A stretch of 46,039 nucleotides of DNA, counting the filler, from Catajapyx aquilonaris (taxonomy: Eukaryota): assembly GCA_000934665.2 (NCBI GenBank). It is 2 parts of 2 records of this genome, joined end to end, with 100 filler letters (N's around TTAATTAATTAA, not from the genome) between each part and the next. Parts side by side here need not be neighbours in the genome. Positions count along the whole stretch, not along the records: positions 23,023 to 46,039 come from JYFJ02005815.1; 1 more part is not named here. One strand, 5' to 3'. A program made the translations under genes and the position numbers. A model generated the notes under the pieces. That model was not told the DNA's origin. It saw nothing but the letters and a program-made list of their open reading frames with translations, and searched no databases. Below, one piece after another: positions 16,116-46,039 of this stretch; the stretch's first letter is position 1; every line of letters starts with the position of its first letter.

Positions 16116-16849
16116 CGATGGACAGTCGGGTGCCAGGGCAGTTCAATACGAAATAAATAGCCATTTCAGTCCAGAAAAGGCCAGAACTCGACCGAAATTA
16201 GTAGGTAAATCCATAATTAACGAGCACTTGCTAAGTCTCTCTCATCATCCTCAATAAAAAGCAGGTCGCAATAAAAGGCAACAAAAGGTGTTGTACTGTA
16301 CGCCGGCGCTTTTTTCCTGACGATGCATTTCCTCGTTGAAAATACACACACACACGCCCGCCTCTCGGAAGTCCGTAGCATGACTTCATAATTTTGCAAA
16401 TAAGCACGCACGGCATGTCAATTATCAGGCGGGTGCGAACCTTGCCCGCTTAAGGCCAAACCCCACACACACAAAATATGGTAAGCGAAGAAATAACAGA
16501 TGGAGCCACCCTCGACCCATCCAACTCTTCATCATCTCCATCCCCCCCTCCCAACACTATAAAACAGCGACGATGTGGAGAGAGTGCCCACCAATTCGCG
16601 CCAATTTACTGCCCCCTCGGGAACATTTCCATGTAGAGAGAGAGNNNNNNNGGGGGGGGGGGGTAATCGGGTTATTTATTCCGCCATGTTATAAGTGCTT
16701 CTAAAGAGGCCATCTTGTCCAGGGAGTCGGGCCGCTGCAGGTCAAAACGCCAAAAGCGCAAACAAGCAACGTTCGGGGACCATGGAGCTTATACCCGAAA
16801 AAGGTGATGAACAGCATTTATGATTCGCCCTGTATTAAGGTGTTTCCAA

Positions 16850-22922: not shown

Positions 22923-23022
22923 NNNNNNNNNNNNNNNNNNNNNNNNNNNNNNNNNNNNNNNNNNNNTTAATTAATTAANNNNNNNNNNNNNNNNNNNNNN
23001 NNNNNNNNNNNNNNNNNNNNNN
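22923..23022. other. Artificial 100-nt assembly spacer (44 N + TTAATTAATTAA + 44 N)
   Basis: Symmetric N runs around a palindromic 12-mer that places stop codons in all six frames. Confidence 0.92.
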
Positions 23023-24287: not shown

Positions 24288-24777
24288 GGTACAAACTGCC
24301 AGAAAAAAGTAGTTGACCAGCAGGATTAGGCGACCCGTCGATTAATGCAGTGATGAGGATTTTGCGGCGATATTTTTTTGGTTATTTTAATTGGCACTGC
24401 AGCACAACAATCCACTAGCAAATATTTGATAGCCATAAAACGCCCCCCCCCCCCTGAAAAANNNNNNAAAAAATTGATAATTCGATCCCTCTTGTAAAAT
24501 GTACGGCCTGCTCTAAAACATTTGCGTGTCAGAGCGCAATGGGTATTTTGGGGGGTGGTCCTACCCACACGAGAAGGCTCGTGCAAACTGGCCAAGAAGT
24601 GCGAATTTATTGGTCAGTTTTGGCGGGCTTTTTCATACAATTTTTGTTTTGCCTCACTCACCAAAATTTTTTTTGGACCCAAGTGGATGTTTAAACAGTG
24701 CGGGCTTTTGCAAACTCAAAGACCCATCAGCAAGGTACATCCATTGCGCATCTCCCCACCACAATTCCATAATCCTC

Positions 24778-29143: not shown

Positions 29144-32100
29144 AAGAAGCGGACACGGATCAAGAGACGGATCGACTCCTGGGGCAGCACAGGCCGGACG
29201 ACAAAGGATTCTTCGACGAGAAGGTAACCCGAGGTTTTAAGCATATAATGTGCAGATTTTGTTTTGGGGTGGAATTATTCTAGCATGTGATTCAATTTGT
29301 TTCAAAAAGACCGTCTTCGCTTTGCCGAGTTTGCCGGCATGACTTCTCTCTCAGGGATTGCAAATGGTACCTGACAAAACCACGCGACTCAACCCCACAC
29401 GCGTGCACACCGTCGTAATTAACCCCCGAGTAATTAGCACAGTGTGGTGGGCACCGGACAGGTGCATCACTGTACGGATTATTATTCGAGCCGGACACTT
29501 TTTTTTGTGTTGTTTTTAGTCGTGGGGGGGTCTGTCACAATATTGTTGCACGCATGATTGGACCCTGTGGTTTTTTTTGTCTGCCGCTCAGTTTGACGTT
29601 ATTGGCAGGGTCTGTCGGGACATTTTTAGAGTGTGCACCAATCAGTTGTTGGATTGTTAGCCCCAGCAACAATCCGGTCAGGTGCTGCCGACATTTTTTT
29701 ATTATTATTCAAGCGACGTTGCCTTATAACCCAAGCGAGTGCAGAACAACTGGCGCTGCTGTTTTCTTCTTGCCTTTTTGGCCTTAATTAGGGCAGGTGC
29801 GAGCGCACCCAACTTGGAATTAATTAAGCCTCCCCCCCTCCCCTATGTTAATTAGGCGGGGGGGGGGGGGGTTACGAATTCACCTTCAGAACCCGAGTTA
29901 GCGGGGAGGGGCCGAGTCTGGCAGGCCAACCACCGCCCCTGTGATTACACTCGGAAAAGTTTCTGGTGCCACCCCAGAGAGAGACTGGGGGGTGCCAGCC
30001 GCCAGGACGTCCAATTGACACGATTTTAGGGAATGTGTCCATAAAGTTAGGTTAGACTTTTGGAACAATGTTCCCATTTTATGTGGCCCTCTCTAGCAGC
30101 TTGTTATTAAGCAGTTACTTTCGAATAACTGTTAGGAATCCTGCGAAACTGTTCTCATGTGGGTTGACTCATTATTGCATAACATGGTCCAATTGACCCA
30201 CTGTAGTGCATGCAATTCAGTCCTCTAACTTGAAACTTAATTTAACTTAATTTAACTTAATTTTTAAAACAATATGTATAGGATATTTGTGTTGTTCCCA
30301 GCGCCAAATTATTTCCAGACACAAAATTTGGGACATTAGCCTATATCGAAACCAACTCTTGCGAGTTTGAGGAGGATAATGTAGTGAAATCTGTACGTAC
30401 TGCGGATTTTTTTTCTCTTCAAATTACACTGTTGGGGTGTTTTGAAGGATCAATTAGCCCAGGCGCTGTATATCCTGCAACGAGATTAATAAGGGCTGCA
30501 AATCCCTCGGATTTCCCCGGGATTGTAATGCGCTAATTTGTCTGCTTAATGCCCACACCCCTGCGAAGGTCATTTTCTGGAGGGACTTAATGCCTCCGCA
30601 AGAAAGACAAGTCAACATTTTATATAAAATGTGCATTACCAGAATTGCTTTCCATTCTTAGCCCCCCCTGTAGTAGTTACCCTTCATTTTTAGCCGCTGG
30701 ATTATCACATCCTGAGGGTGGGTTGTCCCGATTAGCTCTGCACACACAGTTTGATTCGCGAGCGTGTGTGTGTCTGTGTCCCGCGAGAGGAAGATTTAGC
30801 TGGTGGGCTAATCCTGGGGGCTCCCATGTTGCTCCCAAATGCAGGGCACGAGCTTTTAAGTTGAGGGCTTGTCAGATGAGAGAGGAGGGGTGGGCTAAGG
30901 CACGTGGATTAATCAGGGGCTGCCTTTTTTTTGTGTGTGTGGAGCGCCAGAATCCGCCATCATGCCTATCATTCTGGCATTTGCAGGGGCTGTTTTTTCT
31001 CATCAGATTTTTTTTTGGAGAAGGAGCCTGGTTGCATTTCGATGCCGGGAGGAGAAACAGATTAGGAAAAAATCCTGGTGTTCGGAAATTACTTCCTGTT
31101 GGGTTTTTTTTTTGCTGCGGATATCGGAAACTCGTGGTCTAGTCGGACACACACACAAAAAAAAGTTTTTTTTATTAGGAAGAAATAAACGGGAAATGTG
31201 CTGGGGTTTAATGGAATTTGAAATTGGGGAATGTGGCAGGCGTGAATATTGTTGTAATTGCGCGGTCCTATGCCGCAACTATGTGCGGTGTGCACAAAAC
31301 GATGCGGAAATAAAAATATCGGGCGATATTGAGAGTTGAAACACACGTGTGTGTATATGCCCATCAGATTAAATTAAACGCATATATGCCACACTGAAAT
31401 TGCTCCAGGTAGTAAAATCCCTACTTACGCGGATGAGGAGGCGTGTTGCCTTCCTAGAAAATTGAGCGATGTTCCGCTCTGCACACAATTAGTGTTTGAG
31501 TTTTTAAGGCGATAAAAAAAAACAACGAATGGTGCACGCGCCCTTTTCCTGTGCGGTGTGCCAACACGTGACCTCCCGATTACGCTGCTTCCTATTTTGA
31601 TATAACAAAAGGTTGGAGGGTCTGGCATGGGAGAGGTGGGGGGGTTTGACTCAGTTGGGCCGTTTAAGCCAGACTCTCTCGATCAATCCTATCCGCAACA
31701 CACCTGTCCCACATGTGGCCTGCATTGTGCTACGTCACCACTATAGCAACCTGGTGTAAGTGTGCAGTTTCCCCTAGTTTCAATATCTTGTCTCTCTCCT
31801 GAAGTTAGTGGCCCTCCTTCACAGGACACACACCCAAAGAGAGAGGGGATAGGACCCGTGTTCAGTTCAGGATCGATCCTGTGAGAAACGAGAGTGAGGA
31901 ATAGAGACGATAAAGTGGAAAGTTAGGATTGGTCGCTGGATACCCCTCGGTGGTTGCCACGACAACCTGACCTCTTTTTTTTCGGGGGAGGGGAAGGACC
32001 ACCCCCACTTTTTTTTTCGTAGCATGCTGACAAATATGGTCCCGTGATGATGGGGTTCAAGGAGAAGTGCCTCCTCGGCTCCTGCTGCCCATTGACCAAT

Positions 32101-35100
32101 TGGGAGTGTAATGCCGTTTGATGTGGACTGTATCTCGCGGATCAAGACGAGGGAATTTATTTTTCGATGTGTAGTTTTTTTTCTCTTTTTTTTGGCCAAA
32201 ATATTAGTTTCGGACCGGAGAGCCCTGTTTGATCCTCAGCTTGAATACAGGGGATACTGTGCCAAATTGGGAGCAATGCATTAGTTGTTTGATCGGAACT
32301 GGAGTTTTTTGCGTTATTCATTAGTCCATTTTCTGGCTTCCCAAATTATTCATAATTAGACCTGTCGTCCATTTAATAAAGGCTGTACGTGTTTAGAATA
32401 TGGGCCAGCATTCAAATTACGTTCTCATCTGGAATTATGTTGAAAAATATTTACTCATTGAAATGTAAAACACATTGTTTTTTTGTGTGGAATAATAATT
32501 GGACAGGTGTTATGCAATAATGTGTCATCCCACAAAAAAATGTCAAAGTTGAGATAAGACCAGGAACGTACTTCGTTCAGTTAAAATCAATCTGGCGAAA
32601 TATGCATACTACTTCCACATAAATGACCGAAAAGGACACGGAATTAATTTTACAGGTGTGACATTCAACGAGTCAATTTTCTCAAAACTGTTCTCATGTG
32701 AGTTGTGTCATTGTTGCATGACATGTGCAATTGAGCAATCAGAGTTTATGCCTGTGACTTTATAGCTGCGTATTTATGTGATCCATTAGTAAGGAAAAAA
32801 ACAAGAAGTTGGCAGTATTCCATTTTGCTTATCAGAAATGGTCCACAGTCTGGGCCTGAAAATTTTAAGAGGCGGCCCATCCTCTCCTCTCCATGGAAAA
32901 TGAAATTCTGAATTACTTACCAGCATGAGACTGGTACTGTGTGCGTCAGAATTGTGGGTGGGTGTGCACAGCTGACTCTCTCTCTCCCTCCCTGTATTTT
33001 GTTGCCTTTTGGAGGGGGGGTGGGACTAGGGAAATTGCAATTTCAAATATCCCCTGAATCGAGTGGAGGGAACAGGTGGCCTGGGAGTAAATGACTCTCG
33101 CCTGGATTTAAAGGATTAGTTCCCACTGTTTAATGCTCGGGCAAAGTTTATCCTCTTAGGCTGCCAAGGGGTGGGAGAGAGAGGGGGGGGGGGGCATAAA
33201 ATTGCTTTATGGTTNTGGGTCATCGCGTAATTGGGAAGAAACTACCTCCCCAGGATTGCAGCTTGTTGTAGGAGCCGCACTCATTTCCGGATCTGTTCGT
33301 CACATATTTTGAGGTCGTTTAATCGATTTAAGCCTCCAGGGGAGCACCAATTTTCTGCTGGAAAATGTTGTGGGTACAATCCTGTCACTGGATGTTACAG
33401 CCGGCGTCTTAGTTAGGAAGAATTATTATCACTCGTGATTAAAATTAACAAGTAATTGTAATCACTTCAAATTGGTCCAACTGTTGCCTTCAGATATTTG
33501 AAGTCGGTCAGCTGCAGTCAATCATGTCAATGAATCTGATATCAGAAGTTAATAACAGTGGCTGCTCCAGAAGTGGCATCAGGAGAGTAATGCCTGAAAT
33601 GAGCAAAATGGCAGATTGTGCAAGGTGTTCAGACTTGTGAGATCCGCTTGTTTTGTTAGTGGCCTGTTGCGGAATTTGCAGTTGTGCCAAATGAGTAGTT
33701 GCAATATAGATAGTAGGATGTGTGTAGTATGTTGCTAATTGAATGTAACAGCTGCAGGTGGATTTGCTCAAGTTGAACACCCTGAAGGAATGTTAAGCAT
33801 TACGTAACCTTCTTCTGTTAATATTTCATGTTGGCACCATCTTTGCAGTACATGGGTGGTGTCCGTTAACTGTTTTTGCCCTTTGTACGTTCTTTTTAGT
33901 TGTGGTCTTGATGGTTTCCCTCCATCAAACTCGTTTAGTAACCAACTAAATTTTTAAAACTGACCTCCTTTTTGGTAGTTGAGTCGCTGCTGTTGAGACG
34001 GGCTCTCTTTTTAAATGTTGGGTGTTTAGCTTATTAGGTGAGAGTTTTTTAGTGACATGTGTGGCGATGGTTGCATCTTTTAAAACCTCTTGACCTCCAG
34101 CTGGGCTTGTCTCCCATGCAGGGCTGGCGAAAACCCAAGTCACGCACAGTGATGCCCAGCAAAAGCAACAATAAACCAACCTCACCCACGGCCAGTTCGC
34201 ATAGTACCAATGCCAAGTCGCCTTCCCCTCCTAAAGAAACAGTCCAGGCTGGAAAAGTGAAAAAGGTTGCCTCCTCATGTCCATTTCCGTTTATTCACAG
34301 TCTTGATTGGCTTCTTTTTTCTCTCTCCCCAAAATTATATTTTTGTCCCTCCCCGTACCATTTCATCTAGATGCCTGTAACAAGTGTCGATCCGCTGTAG
34401 TTACACCGTCCAAACTACTCCCTTTTGCATGAACGTAGCCCCCTAAGGAAAGAAAGGTATCTTCAGTTGCAGTCAGGTTAAACTCTACTGTTTGTATTCA
34501 TGGCTGTGTGATTGTGTTTTTTGGTTACTGCCAGTGGCATCTTGTGTGTTCGTCCTTAGTGCCTGTGTTGAAGCTATATAAACCCGAGTTTAGGCCTGTC
34601 CGATGGCACTAATAGCCCACCTCGCTCTGGTCTTTTCAGGAGAAGGAGCCAGGGAAGAAGAAGAGCAGGAATAAAGAAGGTATGGGGGCTCAGTCAGAGT
34701 CGGATGCTGAATGGGGATGCTACAAAATAATGGTCATTTCTTTTGGAAGGTTTCGAAAATTATGGATTAATATTCTCTTCTCTTTCCATCCCTTTGCCCT
34801 CTTTGTGTCGCTATGACACTCTGGCGTTCTCTTGGGGTGAGTGGCCCCCTGGATCGGTGTGGATACTTGTTATGCGTTGATTTGTGTGTGGTTAATTGGG
34901 ATTGATTGGAAGGTTGTGCATTTTGTGGTAAATGGATAATAGGAATAATGCCGGCATGTTTTATGGGCCAATTATTATTTTCTGCATGGAAAATTAATGC
35001 ATGTCAATATAATTTTGGCAGAATTGTCAAAAAAAGGCTAATCCGATACACATGGCTCATGTTAAGCGTTGACAGTAATCATGACAGTGTAGTGTTGTCG

Positions 35101-36158
35101 TGTGTGTCACAGAGTACACAACGTGACTAATATTGAATCCTTGGCTTTACAGTGATGATTCACGAACCTGCAGTTCTGATCGAGGGCGTGCTGTTCCGGG
35201 CCAGGTACCTTGGCTCGACGCAACTAGTGTGCGAGGGGCAGCCGACCAAGAGCACGAGGATGATGCAGGCGGAGGAGGCCGTCTCTCGAATCAAGGTGAG
35301 CTTAGATTGCTTTGTTCCGCTCCATCCCTGGGAGTCCAGTTTGCTATTTTGGTTGGCATATTTTCTTCAGTTCCCGTCTTCTCTCTCTTCTCTTCTCCTT
35401 TGACATGAAAAAAAATACATCCCCCCGACACTCCCATTGTTATCTGAGCCGCTATTTGTTTCCATCCATTTGTTCGTTACCTTGATTTGTTTATTATTTT
35501 GCCGTTATAACGAGGCTCTTCTGTGCATAATATTATCAACACACACCTCCCATTGCCAACTTCACCACTGGATATGGCATGTTCTTTGTGTTGCTAATGT
35601 TCGATTCAGTCCCATCAGTTTGGATGTGTTTGGATTGGAAATACTTGTGTCCGGGGAAGGGGTGTTAAATTTTTCGACATTAACGAGGGAAAACCAAAGT
35701 TTCTGTGTGAACAAAACCTATGATGAATATAATGCATGGGTGTTGGATGTAACTGAGTGAGTGGCAAGAGTTTTGGCCTGCATTCAGCGCCGTTGCTTGG
35801 TTCAGGACGGCAAGCAGCGGAACTGAAGCAGTGCTGCCAACGCAAGTGCCAACACTCAGGTCTTTCTCTTGGACCAGAAACTTGAATCTTTAAAAAATAA
35901 ATTCTGTAATAAATGTTGGGAAACGGACACACCAAAACTCGGTAGCGCTTTTTATGTTCCTTTTTGTGGGAGAAGCGTGAACTACAACATTTTCCATCCT
36001 CCTCCTCCTCCCCACTTTCCGCCTATTCCGCACCCCCGTTGCACCCTCTCAACGTGTGACGACACCTTGACCTCCTTCCCTCCCTCTTCACCACAACCCG
36101 ATTTGCCCAACAATTTGCAGGCCAACCAAAATGGCAGCCAGAGCTCCCAGGGTTATGC

Positions 36159-36210
<52 letters not shown>

Positions 36211-39200
36211 GATGGTGGTGGTGGTGATGATGAGGATGATGAGGATGATGATGATGATGAGGATGATGATGAGGATGCTGATGCTGGTCTTGATGATCAT
36301 GCTGACGGGAATGATGATGATGAGGATGATGATGAGGATGATGATGAGGATGATGAGGATGACGATGATTTGATGATGGTGGAGGGGGAAAGGACTGGGA
36401 TGGTGGCGTCTGGTGGAAGTGGTTGTGGTGGCGGTGGAGGAGGCGTGGGGGTGGCGGCGGCTTCGAATAAGCCCCACCCCCCGCCCCCCACTGTCGTGGC
36501 ACCCTTGGGATCGGGGACCAGCGGGACTGTCTATCGGCTCAGGTACCTCGGGTCTGTGGAGGTGGAGGAAGAGACCACAGGGAAAAGGAGACGCAAAAGA
36601 CTCAAGAAGGTCATGGTAGAGGAGGCCGTGATGAAAATCAAGGTGCGGCTCTGTTCTGGCTTCTTAGCTGTCCCCCCTTCTCTGCTGTACAAAGTATATT
36701 ACGTTTATGTATATTTGGTATCTCCCACTCCCCTACCTCCACCCAAAACCTTCCAAAAAATACTTGGTGGTATCAGCCCCGTTCCCCCCCCGTCATGCAC
36801 CACATTGTTACCAAAAAAAAAGTATGCATGTAGCTGTATCGACGTCGTCAGTCATGCAATATGTACAACACACAGGCATAGCACAATTGCGTGCACGCCA
36901 ACACAAAAACAAAAGTAGAAACTTTGCAGGGAAGCCTCACAGGGTTCGTGTCCTGTTGCGTCGCTACCTCCCCACACTATCACATCCAAAACGATGCACT
37001 CTTTCTGTACTATGAGCACAGAGGGTGACTACCACTACTACACTGCAGGGATTCAAATGTTTTTTAAAAGCATTACTCGTTTAAAAAAAAGAAGTGACAC
37101 TTGAAACCTTGCATTCGACTGACTTGAAGTGACCAAATCTGTCACGTAAGACTGCCCCCAATTGCCCCCCGACTACAACTTGTTTCCAGTTGTCATGTGC
37201 CAATGATATGCTTTCTTTCTTTGGCATTCTTCCCATTAGGCATTGGTAAGTGTTGTTGACTTAAATAATCCCTTTTTACTTCACCTCTCTGTGTGACGCT
37301 TTCAGTGCACGCTGCATGGTTTACTTTTCTTTAAATTTGATTTATTCGACATAGCCTGTGTTCTTAAATATTTAAAAAAACAACTTGGAGACATCTAGAG
37401 GTAAGATGGGGACAGTTGTGGTTGAAAAAAAAAAAATTTAAATAAGCAGGTTTGAGATGAAAATCTGCATGGCTTTTTAGTCAGTCAGGAATTGCACAAC
37501 GGAATAGTTGTTAAAAATGGTTGCGATTACGGGGATGGGCTGGGAAGCAGATCACCAATGCCAGCAGCAGTTTTTTCCGCTTTTCACCTAGTTGCATCGC
37601 AGCATCACGCTTTATCATTAGGTGTGTGTGCTCACCCACCTTATTTTTAGGCCTCATCTGTCTCAGACAATAACCCATCCGAAACAAACGAAATACCTCT
37701 GCAGGCACCTGAAGGCGAGACTCAGCCGAGTACTGAAGTGGACCTCTTCATCTCCACGGAAAAGATCATGGTCCTGAACACGGATCTTAAAGTAAGGTTT
37801 TACGAGTGTGATGCGTTTATAGTGCTAATACAACTTGCCTTTCCTTTACAGGAGATCATGATGGACCATGCCCTTCGTACTATTTCCTATATAGCAGACA
37901 TTGGTGACCTGGTAGTTTTGATGGCAAGGAGGAGGATCGTCCCCCAGGATGGAGACGAGGGGGTTAAGATCAACCGCACGCCAAAGATGATCTGTCACGT
38001 CTTTGAGAGTGAAGAGGTACGGGTCACTTAACAGAGCACTTCCTATTTGGTAACAGATAAGTTAACATAGTTTGACCTAAATATGGAAAAATGAAAATGA
38101 AAAATGCGGATCATTGGCCTTACGCGTCAACAGCAGGAAAGGTCACAGGTTGTAAGACTTGTGAGCTAAAGCAATGTTTACCACAAAATACTCGTTATCA
38201 ATAATGGGTGCAGGACAGGACTTATCTTCTTCTAAATGACTTTTGCCATTCAATCCAACCAGCCTCATTGCACTCGGACTGTTGACTGGTTTGAGCAGCT
38301 GTTTTATTGCTGCACTGCTGGTTTTTAAAAGTTGAGTGAGTTTAAGGTGACAATGCAGTGAAATTAAGTTGAAGAGGTGAGCATCTTAGTCAAGGTCTTT
38401 ACCACGTATATTTTTGGTGCAAGTTTGAAACAGTTCAGATGAATATGATGCTTGAAACGTTTTCTCAGTTTGACTGAGTGTCGGCTGTAGATAGATCTGG
38501 AGCACTTTTTCAAACGTGGGAAGGTACATTTTTGACCTGTTTGTACCCAGATCCTCTCTGATACTGACAGTAAGCCATATTCATAGGTTGTAAGGAAGTA
38601 AGTGCAATCACTGCCACCTGCAGTTCAATTGAAATGTTTAAGATTGGGCTATTTTGCAGCCAAATTTAAAAGCATGTATTGACTTTTTATTCACAACTTT
38701 GAACCTGTTCTGAAGAGTCTACTGTGGTTCTCTGCAGGCGCAGTTCATTGCTCAATCGATCGGCCAAGCATTCCAAGTGGCCTACATGGAGTTCCTGAAG
38801 GCGAATGGCATCGAGGACCACAGCTTCGTGAAGGAGATGGACTACCAGGAAGTGCTCAATTCCCAGGAGATATTTGGTGACGAGCTTCAGATGTTTGCCA
38901 AAAAGGAGATGCAGAAGGAGGTTGTGGTTCCCAAGGCGAAGGGGGAGATCTTGGGGGTGGTGATAGTGGAGTCGGGTTGGGGCAGCATGCTCCCGACTGT
39001 AGTCATTGCCAACCTGGCACCAGCGGGAGCAGCGGCCAGGTGCGGGCAGCTCAACATTGGGGACCAGATCATTGCCATCAATGGAATCAGCTTGGTGGGG
39101 CTCCCACTCTCAACATGCCAGACCTACATCAAGGTGAGTGGAAATGAGTCTTGCCAGTAATGAAATACTGTAGAGTAATACCTCGATATAACATTCTACA

Positions 39201-39866
39201 AGGGACCGCCCAAAAGTAGCGCTACAAGCGGGATAGCATTATATGCGGGAGTGTTATATCGGGTTTTTTTTGTGTATTTCGTTGTTACGTCAGAAGCTAT
39301 AACTAGTGTGATCCCTTACAGAACACAAAGAACCAGACAGTAGTGAAACTGACTGTAGTGCCATGTCCGCCAGTGGTGGAAGTGAAGATCAAGAGGCCAG
39401 ACACTAAATACCAGCTGGGATTTAGCGTGCAGAACGGTGTGGTAAGGCACTCTTCATGCTGTGGCTAAACTTTCAGTCGGTTCAGACTGTGCTGCAAGTT
39501 GCCTTTACCTTCCAGATCTGCAGCCTGCTAAGAGGAGGTATAGCCGAGAGGGGCGGAGTGAGAGTGGGCCACCGGATCATTGAGATCAACAACCAGAGTG
39601 TGGTCGCAGTGCCTCATGAGAAGATTGTCAACTTATTGGCCACATCAGTTGGAGAGGTCGGAACCTTGTCGCTTCTCAGACCATTACTAAGGGTTTTAAC
39701 TAATCAGGCATTGTTGTGTAGTTATACGTGATCATGGGCAGATGCAAATATTCTACTTATATATCCGCAGTATTCACATTGATTGCTTTTACAGATTCAT
39801 ATGAAGACGATGCCAACCTCCATGTTCAGGCTTCTTACCGGACAAGAGACGCCAGTGTATATATGA
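29144..39866 (+). CDS. lin-10: X11/Mint/lin-10 (APBA family) adaptor: PTB domain + tandem PDZ; 5' coding exon(s) not identified
   Basis: In-frame GT-AG exons: 29144-29223 ([20 protein letters not shown]), 34122-34265 (GWRKPKSRT..), 34640-34679, 35153-35295 ([27 protein letters not shown]), 37705-37791 ([17 protein letters not shown]), 37852-38016 ([27 protein letters not shown]), 38738-39133 ([15 protein letters not shown]1 [11 protein letters not shown]), 39322-39441, 39516-39656 (PDZ2 [21 protein letters not shown]) and 39795-39866, ending [12 protein letters not shown], the typical Mint C-terminal tail. Confidence 0.97.
30140..30200 (+). repeat. Interspersed repeat fragment, second copy at about 32684-32740
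   Basis: AAACTGTTCTCATGTG(G/A)GTTG..TCATT(A/G)TTGCAT(A/G)ACATG..CAATTGA at both positions. Confidence 0.65.
34439..34456 (+). CDS. Candidate 18-nt microexon of X11 (PPKERK)
   Basis: CCCTTTTGCATGAACGTAG|CCCCCTAAGGAAAGAAAG|GTATCT; phase 0/0 and frame-preserving between the ..KVKK and EKEPGKKK exons. Confidence 0.55.
36121..36642 (+). CDS. X11 cassette exon (174 codons): poly-Asp/Glu tract plus a duplicated PTB N-terminal segment
   Basis: Acceptor TTTGCAG| at 36120, donor AAG|GTGCGG at 36643, phase 0/0, open throughout. It ends [40 protein letters not shown], which parallels [14 protein letters not shown]...[10 protein letters not shown] of the preceding exon. Confidence 0.8.
36160..36369 (+). 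repeat. (GAT/GAG)n trinucleotide tract encoding 56 Asp/Glu in 70 codons
   Basis: Direct reading. All interruptions preserve the acidic frame (GAG, GGT, GCT, GAC). Confidence 0.9.
37240..37245 (+). CDS. Candidate 6-nt microexon of X11 (Ala-Leu) inside the PTB domain
   Basis: TGCTTTCTTTCTTTGGCATTCTTCCCATTAG|GCATTG|GTAAGT: long pyrimidine tract, perfect donor, phase 0/0. Confidence 0.75.
39173..39268. mobile_element. Tigger-like MITE copy in an X11 intron
   Basis: CTCGATATAAC..GGACCGCCCAAAAGTAGCG.TA.AAGCGGGATAG shared with 490-574. Confidence 0.7.
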
Positions 39867-41548: not shown

Positions 41549-43167
41549 ATGTCCGCCTTGGGACATGCCAGGTTTTGTGAGAAAATTGCGCTTGGAGCAC
41601 CAACCATACTCAGTCTGTTTGGTTTCTTATTATTTTGTCTGTCGTTTACATTTTACTTCTTTGACAATTAGTGCAAATTTTGTCAGTTTTAATAAAAATA
41701 CTTTCCTATAAACAACTGGGGCTATGACTTTCATGTGTCGCATGTTAATGTTTGACTTCATATTGAGCAACAACTTCACGATTTGCATTAATGTTATGTA
41801 GTTAAGTATGTCCAATTAATAACTTTTACAGGCGTCTTCCAAATATTTTAATCTTTGGCATAACATGTTACACCAACCTGATGAATCTTTGAACAGGGCA
41901 GATTCCTGGTATAAAGGATGTGGAGGTGTGCATGAGACCTCCATGTGAGAAAATCTTGGTGGGTACCTGGGAGCAGCGGTACTCATGCCAGCTGCCTGAC
42001 GACTTAAAGAATTTTTATTTGACCACCGATGGGTTCAAGATGACTTGGAAGTTCAAGTACGGAGGTCGGTTTTTTACGACAGGTTCAAATAACTATCTTT
42101 CTCTATCTCTGTCATTGAGAGGTACTGTGCCTCGTGCATGCAGATACTGCTTGTGCTCAAACTTGCTTCCTTCCCCAAAGCTTCCAAAACCAACCTAGCC
42201 TAACCCTGCAAAACCAGTCCCAATCACAATGAGCATGACTTTCTTTTTCATATTTGACAACTTCCTTCACATATTTTTCTAGTGACGCTTCAAAGCTGCG
42301 GCATGGCACAACAAGACAACATGCACATACTTCATACAATAACTGTACATTTTTGCAATTGCTTTCTGTGCATTGGTTTAGTGGAAGTGTTTTTCCCCCT
42401 GTGCTTCTGTCATGTCTTATAGCAGCTTTTGCATTTGTGAATGCTTTTGAAAAATGCAGTGTTATTCTAATGGCTGTCTTATTGCTACCAGATGACATTT
42501 TGCCAACCGGCAGTGCTTGCATAAACCAACTGAGCCAACTTCAGAAGCTTACTGGCTTCTGCACAAGCACTGAGGAGTCACCGTTGGACCTGAACGATCT
42601 GAACCTGGAGCCAGATGGCATCCGAAAACCAAACCTGAGCCTCCGCAGCAAGGTCTTTGAACTGGACAACTGTGGAGAGGATGTCGGGTGGGCCTGCCTC
42701 GCTTACATGCCCAAACCCGTGAATTATGATGCGGACGCGCTGCCTGCTCCCCCTGAGGAGCCTTCAGTCTGGCTGCTAGACAGGGCCTTCCAGTGGCACT
42801 TCCTGGCCCCAAACTTCTCTGCCTATTTCCGCATGATGTTGGTCCACCTCGGACTGCCCCAGTGGCAGTGTCGCTTTACACAAACTGGACTAGCCCCATG
42901 GGCTGAGGTAATGAGTGTTGCTTGGGTCATTTAATAACCATGCAAAAGTCACGCATATGATCATAGTGGTGCTATAATTTGTAATGACATCACTATTTTG
43001 AATATCGTTATTAGTTGGTGTTCTCGTTGGTGGCACCGCATCTTCTCCAAGACAAGCCAAGCGTCAGGGAAATGGACATTCAAAACACTCTGGATGTGTC
43101 CATCTTCAGACGGAAGAAAGGAACCAAAGGCAAAAATCCAGCTAAAGAACCAGTCCAATCTACTTAA
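41549..43167 (+). CDS. TPGS2: Tubulin polyglutamylase complex subunit 2, 4 coding exons, about 266 aa
   Basis: Exons 41549-41612, 41897-42064, 42492-42907 and 43015-43167 join in frame (801 nt). Motifs EKIALG, WEQRYSCQLPDDLKNFYLTTDGFKMTW, VFELDNC and VWLLDRAFQWHFLAPNFSAYFRMMLVHLGLPQWQ match TPGS2. The start is uncertain (in-frame ATG also at 41498). Confidence 0.92.
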
Positions 43168-45037: not shown

Positions 45038-46039
45038 ATGATGCGAGTCAGTGTTGTGTTGGTTTGGATTGTTGTGATCCACTCTGTGGCTGGGAAATTG
45101 TACGATGAGTGAGTATGCAGCATTACATTCAGATGAGTGCAGCGCACTGGTGGCGCCACGAGTCACTGGCGGAAAAAAGAGCGATATTTTCCGCCATCGA
45201 CTCGAGGCGTCACCATCCCAACATCCTTATTTACACATCTTGAAGAGTAGGCTATGTATGGACGACTATTTGTCCTTGTCATTGCGCAATTATTTCATTT
45301 ATTTGTGACTATCCCTACACTACTGTCTGGTCTTATTCATACACCTCATAGTCTCAGCAGAAAGAATTCAAAAGGCCGGAGCCACATTCCAGTCCATCAT
45401 TAATGTCACGACGTTAATTATGAAATATGGCCCCATTCGCGCCTGAAAAAAGAAACACTTCAGCCTAATAACAATATTGTCTTTTTTTATTTTAAAAAAA
45501 AAGAGAAGCGTCTGATAGACTACTTTTGAGATTTTATGCCAACCTTATACGTGCATAATGTGATGTAATCTGTCCGGATCCGACATTGACGCCCTGTAAT
45601 TTTCATCCCCAAATTAGCCGTCACAGAGGCCACTACGCTGCCAAGTACCGCTACGACTACACTGAATACGGAGACAAACACGGTCCGTACTACAGGGTAC
45701 ACAGGTTCAAGAAAGTGCCCGAGCCACACCTTCCACACGGACCTGGAGGTCCCCATCACGGGGGTCACGGAGGTCACCCATTGCCTCCGATCCATCCTCA
45801 GCAGGGACACGACCATGGCTACGGACACCACGACCTGGGTTACAACACCCACGGGTACGAGCACCAAAATCACCATCACTACTACCCGGACATCTACTAC
45901 GGAGGACACGGAGGATCGGTGTTGGGGCTGAGCAAGCCGAGCCACGGAATTAAGATTGGTGACTACGGCCACTACCACGGAGGATCGGTGTTGGGTCTAA
46001 ACAAGCCCAGTCACGGAATCGTGCACGGAACCAAAATTG
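45038..46039 (+). CDS. Secreted His/Gly/Tyr-rich repetitive protein (cuticle/structural-like), 3' truncated by the window
   Basis: Exon 45038-45108 encodes the signal peptide MMRVSVVLVWIVVIHSVAG-KLYD with donor GA|GTGAGT (phase 2). Exon 45618-end follows ATTAG| and reads RHRGHYAAKYRYDY...HGPGGPHHGGHGGH...HGGSVLGLSKPSHGI with no stop and C-ending codon bias. It is absent from the supplied ORF track, which shows only its antisense. Confidence 0.85.

Follow-up and report, generated by a model that had tools for sequence, protein, structure and literature searches.

Mint/X11 proteins connect membrane traffic to Munc18, neurexins, calcium channels and the tails of the APP family. The present analysis concerns a stretch of 46,039 nucleotides (nt) of Catajapyx aquilonaris DNA (assembly GCA_000934665.2), called the window throughout, on whose + strand an arthropod lin-10/X11/Mint gene is represented by its 3' half. 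Within this gene, exon A supplies the PTB (PID) domain with its canonical first strand and helix (copy A), and a downstream cassette exon (36121-36642) ends in a diverged second version of the same segment (copy B). The cassette is almost certainly a real, conserved and alternatively used exon.

The closest described system is exon 6 of human and mouse Mint1 (APBA1), an alternative exon of 33 nt which encodes residues 495-505 and lies between ...IK and APEGE (PMC3667844). Skipping of exon 6 (Mint1 826) enables the binding of Rab6-GTP and localisation to the Golgi, while APP binding is kept (PMC3667844). The cassette resembles exon 6 in several respects: both belong to the same gene family, use the same junction and insert in the same loop of the PTB domain, which connects the first helix to the second strand, and both are optional, in phase 0 and of basic content. 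That the cassette site is the Mint1 exon 6 junction had been missed in an earlier annotation of this DNA (hereafter the sequence-only reading). Unlike the arthropod cassette, however, the vertebrate exon is restricted to 11 residues and has no strand-helix copy, whereas the cassette carries an acidic spacer together with a complete paralog of the strand and helix before it, with a length of 59 residues in Bombyx (a 19-residue spacer plus B), 174 residues here and more in Allacma (a 172-residue spacer plus B). In Mint2 (chain 3suz) the sequence KAAKIKKKA is found at the place of exon 6.

Two further reports concern PTB domains. NUMB exon 3 is an 11-residue PTB insert that changes lipid and membrane binding, affecting phospholipids and the plasma membrane, and creates a surface for an acidic domain (MDM2) (PMC11889595). 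Like NUMB exon 3, the cassette is an alternative exon inside a Dab-like PTB domain that adds basic and hydrophobic residues, but NUMB is another gene, and its exon 3 contributes a short disordered stretch, without a duplicated fold element or an acidic tract in cis. Residues L473/L474 of rat Mint1, which are required for insertion into the membrane, are described as part of an exposed loop at a distance from the APP site (PMC3564535).

Duplicated fold segments are known from three other settings. Mutually exclusive tandem exons (PMC9741552, PMC9013439) share with the Mint pair an origin by tandem duplication and the encoding of homologous segments for one structural position, but in the Mint gene the phases of exon A and the cassette bar substitution and the two copies co-occur. 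In vertebrate COE/EBF, a tandemly duplicated helix exon contributes both copies to one protein (PMC2394523); there, inclusion is mandatory and the repeated helix extends a helix-loop-helix motif, while the Mint cassette is optional and lies inside a closed globular fold. In engineered alternate frame folding, a chain contains two copies of a fold segment, one of which completes the fold while the other is orphaned, and ligands shift the balance (PMC12344692). Such constructs are man-made by circular permutation, with near-identical copies at opposite termini, whereas the Mint copies are natural, N-terminal, in tandem, 33% identical, and supplied by splicing.

A cassette exon with a second strand-helix segment

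The elements on which the argument depends are the following.

35153/35174-35295, + strand: exon A, canonical PTB first strand and helix (Pfam PID profile 1-34, 37.9 bits)
36121-36642, + strand: cassette exon, 522 nt, phase 0/0, consisting of a short N-terminal part, an acidic tract, a Gly/Pro linker and copy B
36160-36369, + strand: acidic tract, 56 Asp/Glu per 70 residues, an imperfect (GAT)n array
36370-36522, + strand: Gly/Pro-rich linker, 51 residues
36523-36642, + strand: copy B, diverged paralog of the PTB first strand and helix (PID profile 1-33, 16.3 bits alone)
36583-36609, + strand: polybasic loop KRRRKRLKK, joining the strand of copy B to its helix
37651-37791, + strand: next PTB exon, second strand (RNA joint 35293>37649, cut +2)

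Exon A has an AG before 35153 and GTGAGC after 35295, and its product ends ...AEEAVSRIK; the cassette, with 174 codons, is preceded by TTTGCAG and followed by GTGCGG. The last part of each exon encodes a PTB strand and helix, and the ...IK junction is directly followed by GT. The sequence-only reading had described the end of the cassette as a diverged paralog of exon A at an identical junction, and this is borne out by direct alignment, where the score of A against B is 60 as compared to -12 +/- 8 for 2000 shuffles (z ~9), and by profile-profile comparison (E = 2.2e-5, 39 columns, 33% identity). Copy B retains the residues common to A and to the PID profile (F, R, an aromatic residue, L-G-S, and then M..EEAV..IK), and the two copies diverge most in the strand-helix loop, which is two residues longer in B. 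The relationship is best explained by tandem duplication of the exon encoding the PTB first strand and helix, an event that would be ancient.

The divergent loop of copy B, KRRRKRLKK, fits a K-K/R-x-K/R cluster as far as sequence pattern is concerned. This is the classical pattern of a monopartite nuclear localisation signal (NLS) or polybasic lipid-binding patch. Loops of the GRKRRKRLKK type occur among 120 lin-10 gene models considered below. A divergent copy B with a longer loop and few basic residues (...CWKYRTKK...) is present in metagenome locus L024 (4884-5018), where exon A is canonical, and since its loop has few basic residues the polybasic loop is not universal. The metagenome scan pattern also caught another PTB gene, which we take to be Numb-like, in two loci (L021 410-514 and L022 463-567); judged by these, GSVEVEE of copy B is nearer to the general PTB consensus than GSTQLV of copy A.

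RNA evidence

One public sequencing run (X1, kind not on record) was used in the form of contigs, which cannot show absence. A contig of 2487 nt aligns to the window with 0 mismatches and GT..AG joints and is for this reason regarded as a spliced transcript. It joins 35295 straight to 37651, so that the cassette is skipped in this Catajapyx aquilonaris transcript; among the X1 contigs, none has RNA with the cassette included. The canonical junction 35295>37705 that had been expected from the sequence was not seen; the acceptor used, 37651, is 54 nt upstream of 37705 and adds 18 in-frame residues before APEGE. This extension (37651-37704) falls in the same loop as the cassette and the vertebrate exon 6 insert, and models of other species have extensions of 2 residues (AL) and of 8 residues at the same place.

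Exon A likewise has two acceptors. The start at 35153 given in the sequence-only reading does have an AG acceptor, but the RNA contig enters at a second one, 35174, 21 nt away. Both acceptor forms are also present in insect models (...KEVLIEG... vs ...IHEPSVLIEG...).

Conservation and selection

A protein search with copy B returned 140 proteins at E <= 10, and 120 of these models were examined. All 120 listed lin-10 models carry A- and B-type segments in tandem, and none carries B alone. Named species among the listed matches are a springtail, cockroach, louse, thrips, lacewing, caddisfly and many Hymenoptera. A Bombyx-type query found copy B in Bombyx, in 24 further lepidopteran clusters, in a caddisfly and in a mealybug. 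The carriers of copy B span nine hexapod orders in all. The statement in the sequence-only reading that some insect lin-10 models contain a KRRKR-type segment proved correct.

An exhaustive search of a representative library gave 73 matches at E <= 0.001, of which 72 were examined (P0121-P0192). Among these, 66 are fragments of genomic open reading frames (ORFs) with a Val (GTx) codon right after the last Lys of copy B, which is the mark of a GT donor; the other 6 comprise 3 spliced full-length models and 3 outside the motif. A metagenome scan yielded 24 loci. The donor count was based on the 19 whose match reaches the end of B, and these correspond to about nine distinct lineages, several loci being near-identical; left out were L021 and L022 (the other PTB gene), L019 (diverged), L020 (contig end) and L023 (no match at 1e-3). 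GT directly follows copy B in all 19 loci; exon A is present on the 5' side of B in 4 of these, and on the 3' side the next PTB exon is present in 12. The acceptor context TTTGCAG/GCCAAC is common to the cassette of the window and locus L018.

To assess selection, 36 pairs were compared over 25 structural codons of B. While pS ranges from 0.56 to 1.03 and is saturated, pN is only 0.05-0.28, giving pN/pS of 0.06-0.46. Taken together, the conservation, the intact donors and the low pN against a saturated pS indicate that the exon is under purifying selection and is not a by-product of the (GAT)n array.

These data bear on a trivial explanation, that the cassette is no more than an ORF open by chance or a pseudo-exon in decay, in which a copy of exon A that has lost its function is free of stops because the (GAT)n microsatellite yields few of them. 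The array is indeed open in five of six frames, and the cassette is without RNA cover in the one run (X1). However, copy B sits outside the repeat, its frame and donor are intact in 19/19 loci and 120/120 listed models, its structural codons have the low pN/pS values given above, the repeat itself contains zero indels, and the acidic character recurs in L018 with different codons. A chance ORF is contradicted by the conservation data, and we consider it extremely unlikely.

The segment stands in public gene models, and the exon is real, ancient and unstudied. A description of the insect cassette was not found in the full-text literature searched, which does not extend to most journals behind a subscription or to the earliest papers on Drosophila X11L.

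The acidic spacer

The count of 56 Asp/Glu in 70 residues reported earlier for the window is exact (cassette residues 14-83), and a 51-residue Gly/Pro-rich linker comes next. TRF identifies the underlying repeat at 36155-36378, with a period of 3, 75 copies, 77% matches and 0 indels. An acidic spacer before the second copy is also the rule elsewhere, as 34 of 35 distinct spacers, ranging from 17 to 172 residues in length, are net acidic, two lepidopteran ones marginally so. Hymenoptera spacers have an EEDECDSSEEL cluster in common. The cassette of L018 opens like that of the window (cag/GCCAAC...) and has 61 Asp/Glu in 151 residues before B, encoded by GAG/GAA rather than GAT. Because acidity is found in 34/35 spacers and is achieved through different codons in L018, it looks selected, and the extreme poly-Asp run in the window is a local microsatellite expansion of this acidic trait.

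Splicing mode

The optional use of the cassette is evident from the RNA contig (35295>37651) together with the gene models of Bombyx mori and B. mandarina, for which 15 of the 19 members of a 90% cluster were listed. In 3 of these 15 isoforms the cassette is included, while 12 join ...SRIK straight to APEGE or ALAPEGE.

Tandem duplicated exons are commonly mutually exclusive (PMC9741552, PMC9013439), and it might be supposed that A and B are also alternatives, such that no protein ever has both. This is next to impossible, as exon A (122 or 143 nt) is entered in phase 1 while the cassette (522 nt) is in phase 0, so that B cannot replace A in frame. Only two in-phase AG sites occur upstream of B, both without a pyrimidine tract, and both copies are present in 120/120 listed models, with B alone in none. 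Mutually exclusive splicing of A and B is thus ruled out by the exon phases and by the lack of a usable in-phase acceptor.

A second possibility is that the cassette mainly marks a truncated isoform, in which the transcript ends in the intron after B and the product is an A-spacer-B fragment without PTB core and PDZ domains. In several listed models (8 rows among the 120) ...KIK runs into V-R... intron-like sequence and then stops, and some of the read-through models (P0049, P0051, P0052, P0079 and P0080) carry the PID family only; as such models end just after B, B cannot complete the core in cis in them. We regard truncation as the main role of the cassette as very unlikely, since B is spliced to APEGE/APDGE in most listed models, unspliced RNA can yield read-through models, and the residues that B has kept for fold formation would be left unexplained.

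The window (+183), the L008 group and L024 each have a TGCATG element (Rbfox-type) within 400 nt 3' of B; within the same 400 nt it is absent from L018, L005, L007, L002, L004/L001 and L006. The background is ~0.17-0.21 per 400 nt.

Proposed completion of the PTB fold by copy B

Of the possible explanations for the preservation of copy B, we favour one in which B occupies the strand-helix place of the PTB domain, copy A being left as an orphan segment and the loop altered, and to this overall reading, which is built on sequence comparisons, we give an even chance. When the cassette is skipped, copy A and the core form the ordinary PTB domain, this being the form seen in the RNA of Catajapyx aquilonaris. 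When it is included, the order is A, acidic spacer, flexible linker, B and PTB core, and B, being contiguous with the core, would take the strand-helix place. The strand-helix loop would then shift from a hydrophobic, lipid-facing one, corresponding to the membrane-inserting leucines of rat Mint1, to one that is acidic and then polybasic. Such a loop swap may change lipid, partner or localisation behaviour while the groove for APP-type peptides is kept, and the conserved acidic tract upstream would probably modulate the basic loop electrostatically. By the spacing in 3suz and the exon 6 numbering, L473/L474 appear to map to QLL just after GST, with an offset between rat and human Mint1 numbering that we take to be 2 residues.

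The domain-complementation idea put forward in the sequence-only reading fits these comparisons, in that B keeps the fold-forming residues and the full PID match begins with it. Pfam places the beginning of its full-length PID match (profile 1-139 of 140) at B in all three inclusion models that were analysed, the match spanning 185-325 in P0004, 255-403 in P0179 and 291-433 in P0005, and A gives a second, partial match. That the match starts at B reflects contiguity in sequence, not physics. Whether B takes the strand-helix position in at least one state is, in our estimate, evenly balanced, whereas masking of the basic loop by the acidic tract is offered as a tentative suggestion.

A number of observations weigh against the interpretation that we favour. 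The sole RNA contig skips the cassette and X1 contigs give no cover at 35578-36690; inclusion in other species rests on database gene models, and some wasp and ant models stop just past B through intron read-through. On the Pfam PID profile (PF00640), B alone reaches 16.3 bits (E = 0.01), below the cut-off of 20.9, while A reaches 37.9 bits, and in alignment A1 there are 38 invariant positions for A (residues 60-100) against 21 for B (residues 185-220). Of almost no weight, as the core and PDZ domains are mostly unfolded in them, is the fact that both AlphaFold2 models give B no secondary structure. A weak point is that no dipteran or beetle model is among the matches listed from a word-based search (best 120 of 140) or from the Bombyx-type query, which weakly suggests that the cassette may be dispensable in some lineages.

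The AlphaFold2 models were based on a 27-row alignment and had a mean pLDDT of 33.6 and pTM of 0.20 for P0004, and of 38.4 and 0.25 for P0179, with the PTB core mostly unfolded. The helix of A is formed in both of these low-confidence models and its strand in one. Predictions of this kind are known to be biased where a segment is duplicated (PMC12344692). A phmmer search of copy B alone against PDB sequences gave a chance match only (E = 3.1).

A different explanation is that copy A is always folded and the cassette is a long charged insert in the loop that leads from the helix to the second strand, serving as a regulatory or localisation module, so that the likeness of B to A is a leftover of its origin. 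Such a module might form a patch that is NLS-like or binds lipids, or it might block a partner in the manner of Mint1 exon 6. The better conservation and higher PID profile score of A agree with this, as do vertebrate Mint1, Mint2 and NUMB, where short basic inserts in this loop act without refolding of the domain, and the loop evidently accepts other inserts, such as the RNA-supported 18-residue extension from 37651 and the 2- and 8-residue extensions in other models. A pure loop module, however, needs no hydrophobic strand and helix positions, yet these are invariant or nearly so in B from Collembola to insects, and the conserved positions of B have been kept while synonymous sites are saturated. 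In addition, an amphipathic strand-helix unit left unfolded would be exposed. We therefore consider a permanently folded copy A possible, though on the unlikely side.

An extension of the favoured reading, in which B completes the fold, is that the inclusion isoform is a natural alternate-frame-folding switch with A and B competing reversibly for one PTB core, which we consider doubtful. A duplicated fold segment, as used in the engineered proteins, does occur twice in one chain in the listed models. The balance of such a switch might be set by the acidic tract (possibly through phosphorylation), by acidic lipids or importin acting on the basic residues in the loop of B, or by proteins that bind the orphaned copy. 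In that case the product of splicing would be a conformational switch and not just a variant domain, a mechanism that is plausible. A bold corollary would be that the short basic exon of vertebrate Mint1/Mint2 is a remnant of the same ancient duplication.

A large optional exon has been kept in hexapods, from springtails to moths, at the junction used by the 11-residue exon that decides on Rab6 and the Golgi in vertebrates, which marks this junction as an old regulatory hot spot. If B does replace A, this would be a rare natural case in which splicing provides two tandem versions of an element of a globular core, a principle familiar until now chiefly from engineered proteins. Tractable insects for isoform-specific work include silkworm, wasps, cockroach and thrips.

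Other features of the window

The identity of the gene is clear. When the insect homologues P0005, P0007 and P0012 were compared to the window by tblastn, they showed 86-100% identity across the PTB and PDZ exons, up to ...QETPVYI. Among homologues compared to Pfam, P0004, P0005 and P0193 match PID, PDZ and PDZ_6, and P0179, the C-terminal part of which is garbled, matches PID only. The window gene is a Mint/X11/lin-10 adaptor in which two PDZ domains and a conserved C-terminal ...PVYI tail come after the PTB (PID) domain. With RNA-corrected coordinates, AG/GT flanks are present on every exon and the frame is open through to the stop codon. The remaining exons are as follows.

34640-34679, + strand: micro-exon, 40 nt (RNA contig joints 29221>34638 and 34677>35172, cut +2; AG/GT flanks)
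37852-38016, + strand: PTB exon (tblastn, RNA contig)
38738-39133, + strand: PTB end and PDZ1 exon (tblastn, RNA contig)
39322-39441, + strand: PDZ1/PDZ2 exon (tblastn, RNA contig)
39516-39656, + strand: PDZ2 exon (tblastn, RNA contig)
39795-39866, + strand: last coding exon, ...PVYI and stop codon (tblastn, RNA contig)

The micro-exon at 34640-34679 is rich in Lys codons, lies between an exon at ~29.2 kb and exon A, and is known through the RNA contig only. Runs of N occur in upstream introns (16645-16651, 22923-22966, 22979-23022, 24462-24467 and 33215, 102 bases in total). At 30146-30184 and 32607-32668 there are X1 contigs with joints that go back and with many loose ends, which suggests that the large intron contains a dispersed repeat.

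No Pfam match was obtained for four further long ORFs, including 42239-42931 and 45559-46038. The first of these two (+ strand) is similar to tubulin polyglutamylase complex subunit 2 (TPGS2; Knr4/Smi1-like), with a copepod protein as the best named match (53% identity), followed by one from an aphid (40%). The second (+ strand), which runs off the end of the window, is a His/Gly/Tyr-rich frame with repeated GGSVLGL.KPSHGI units, and its product is possibly a structural (cuticle-like) protein.

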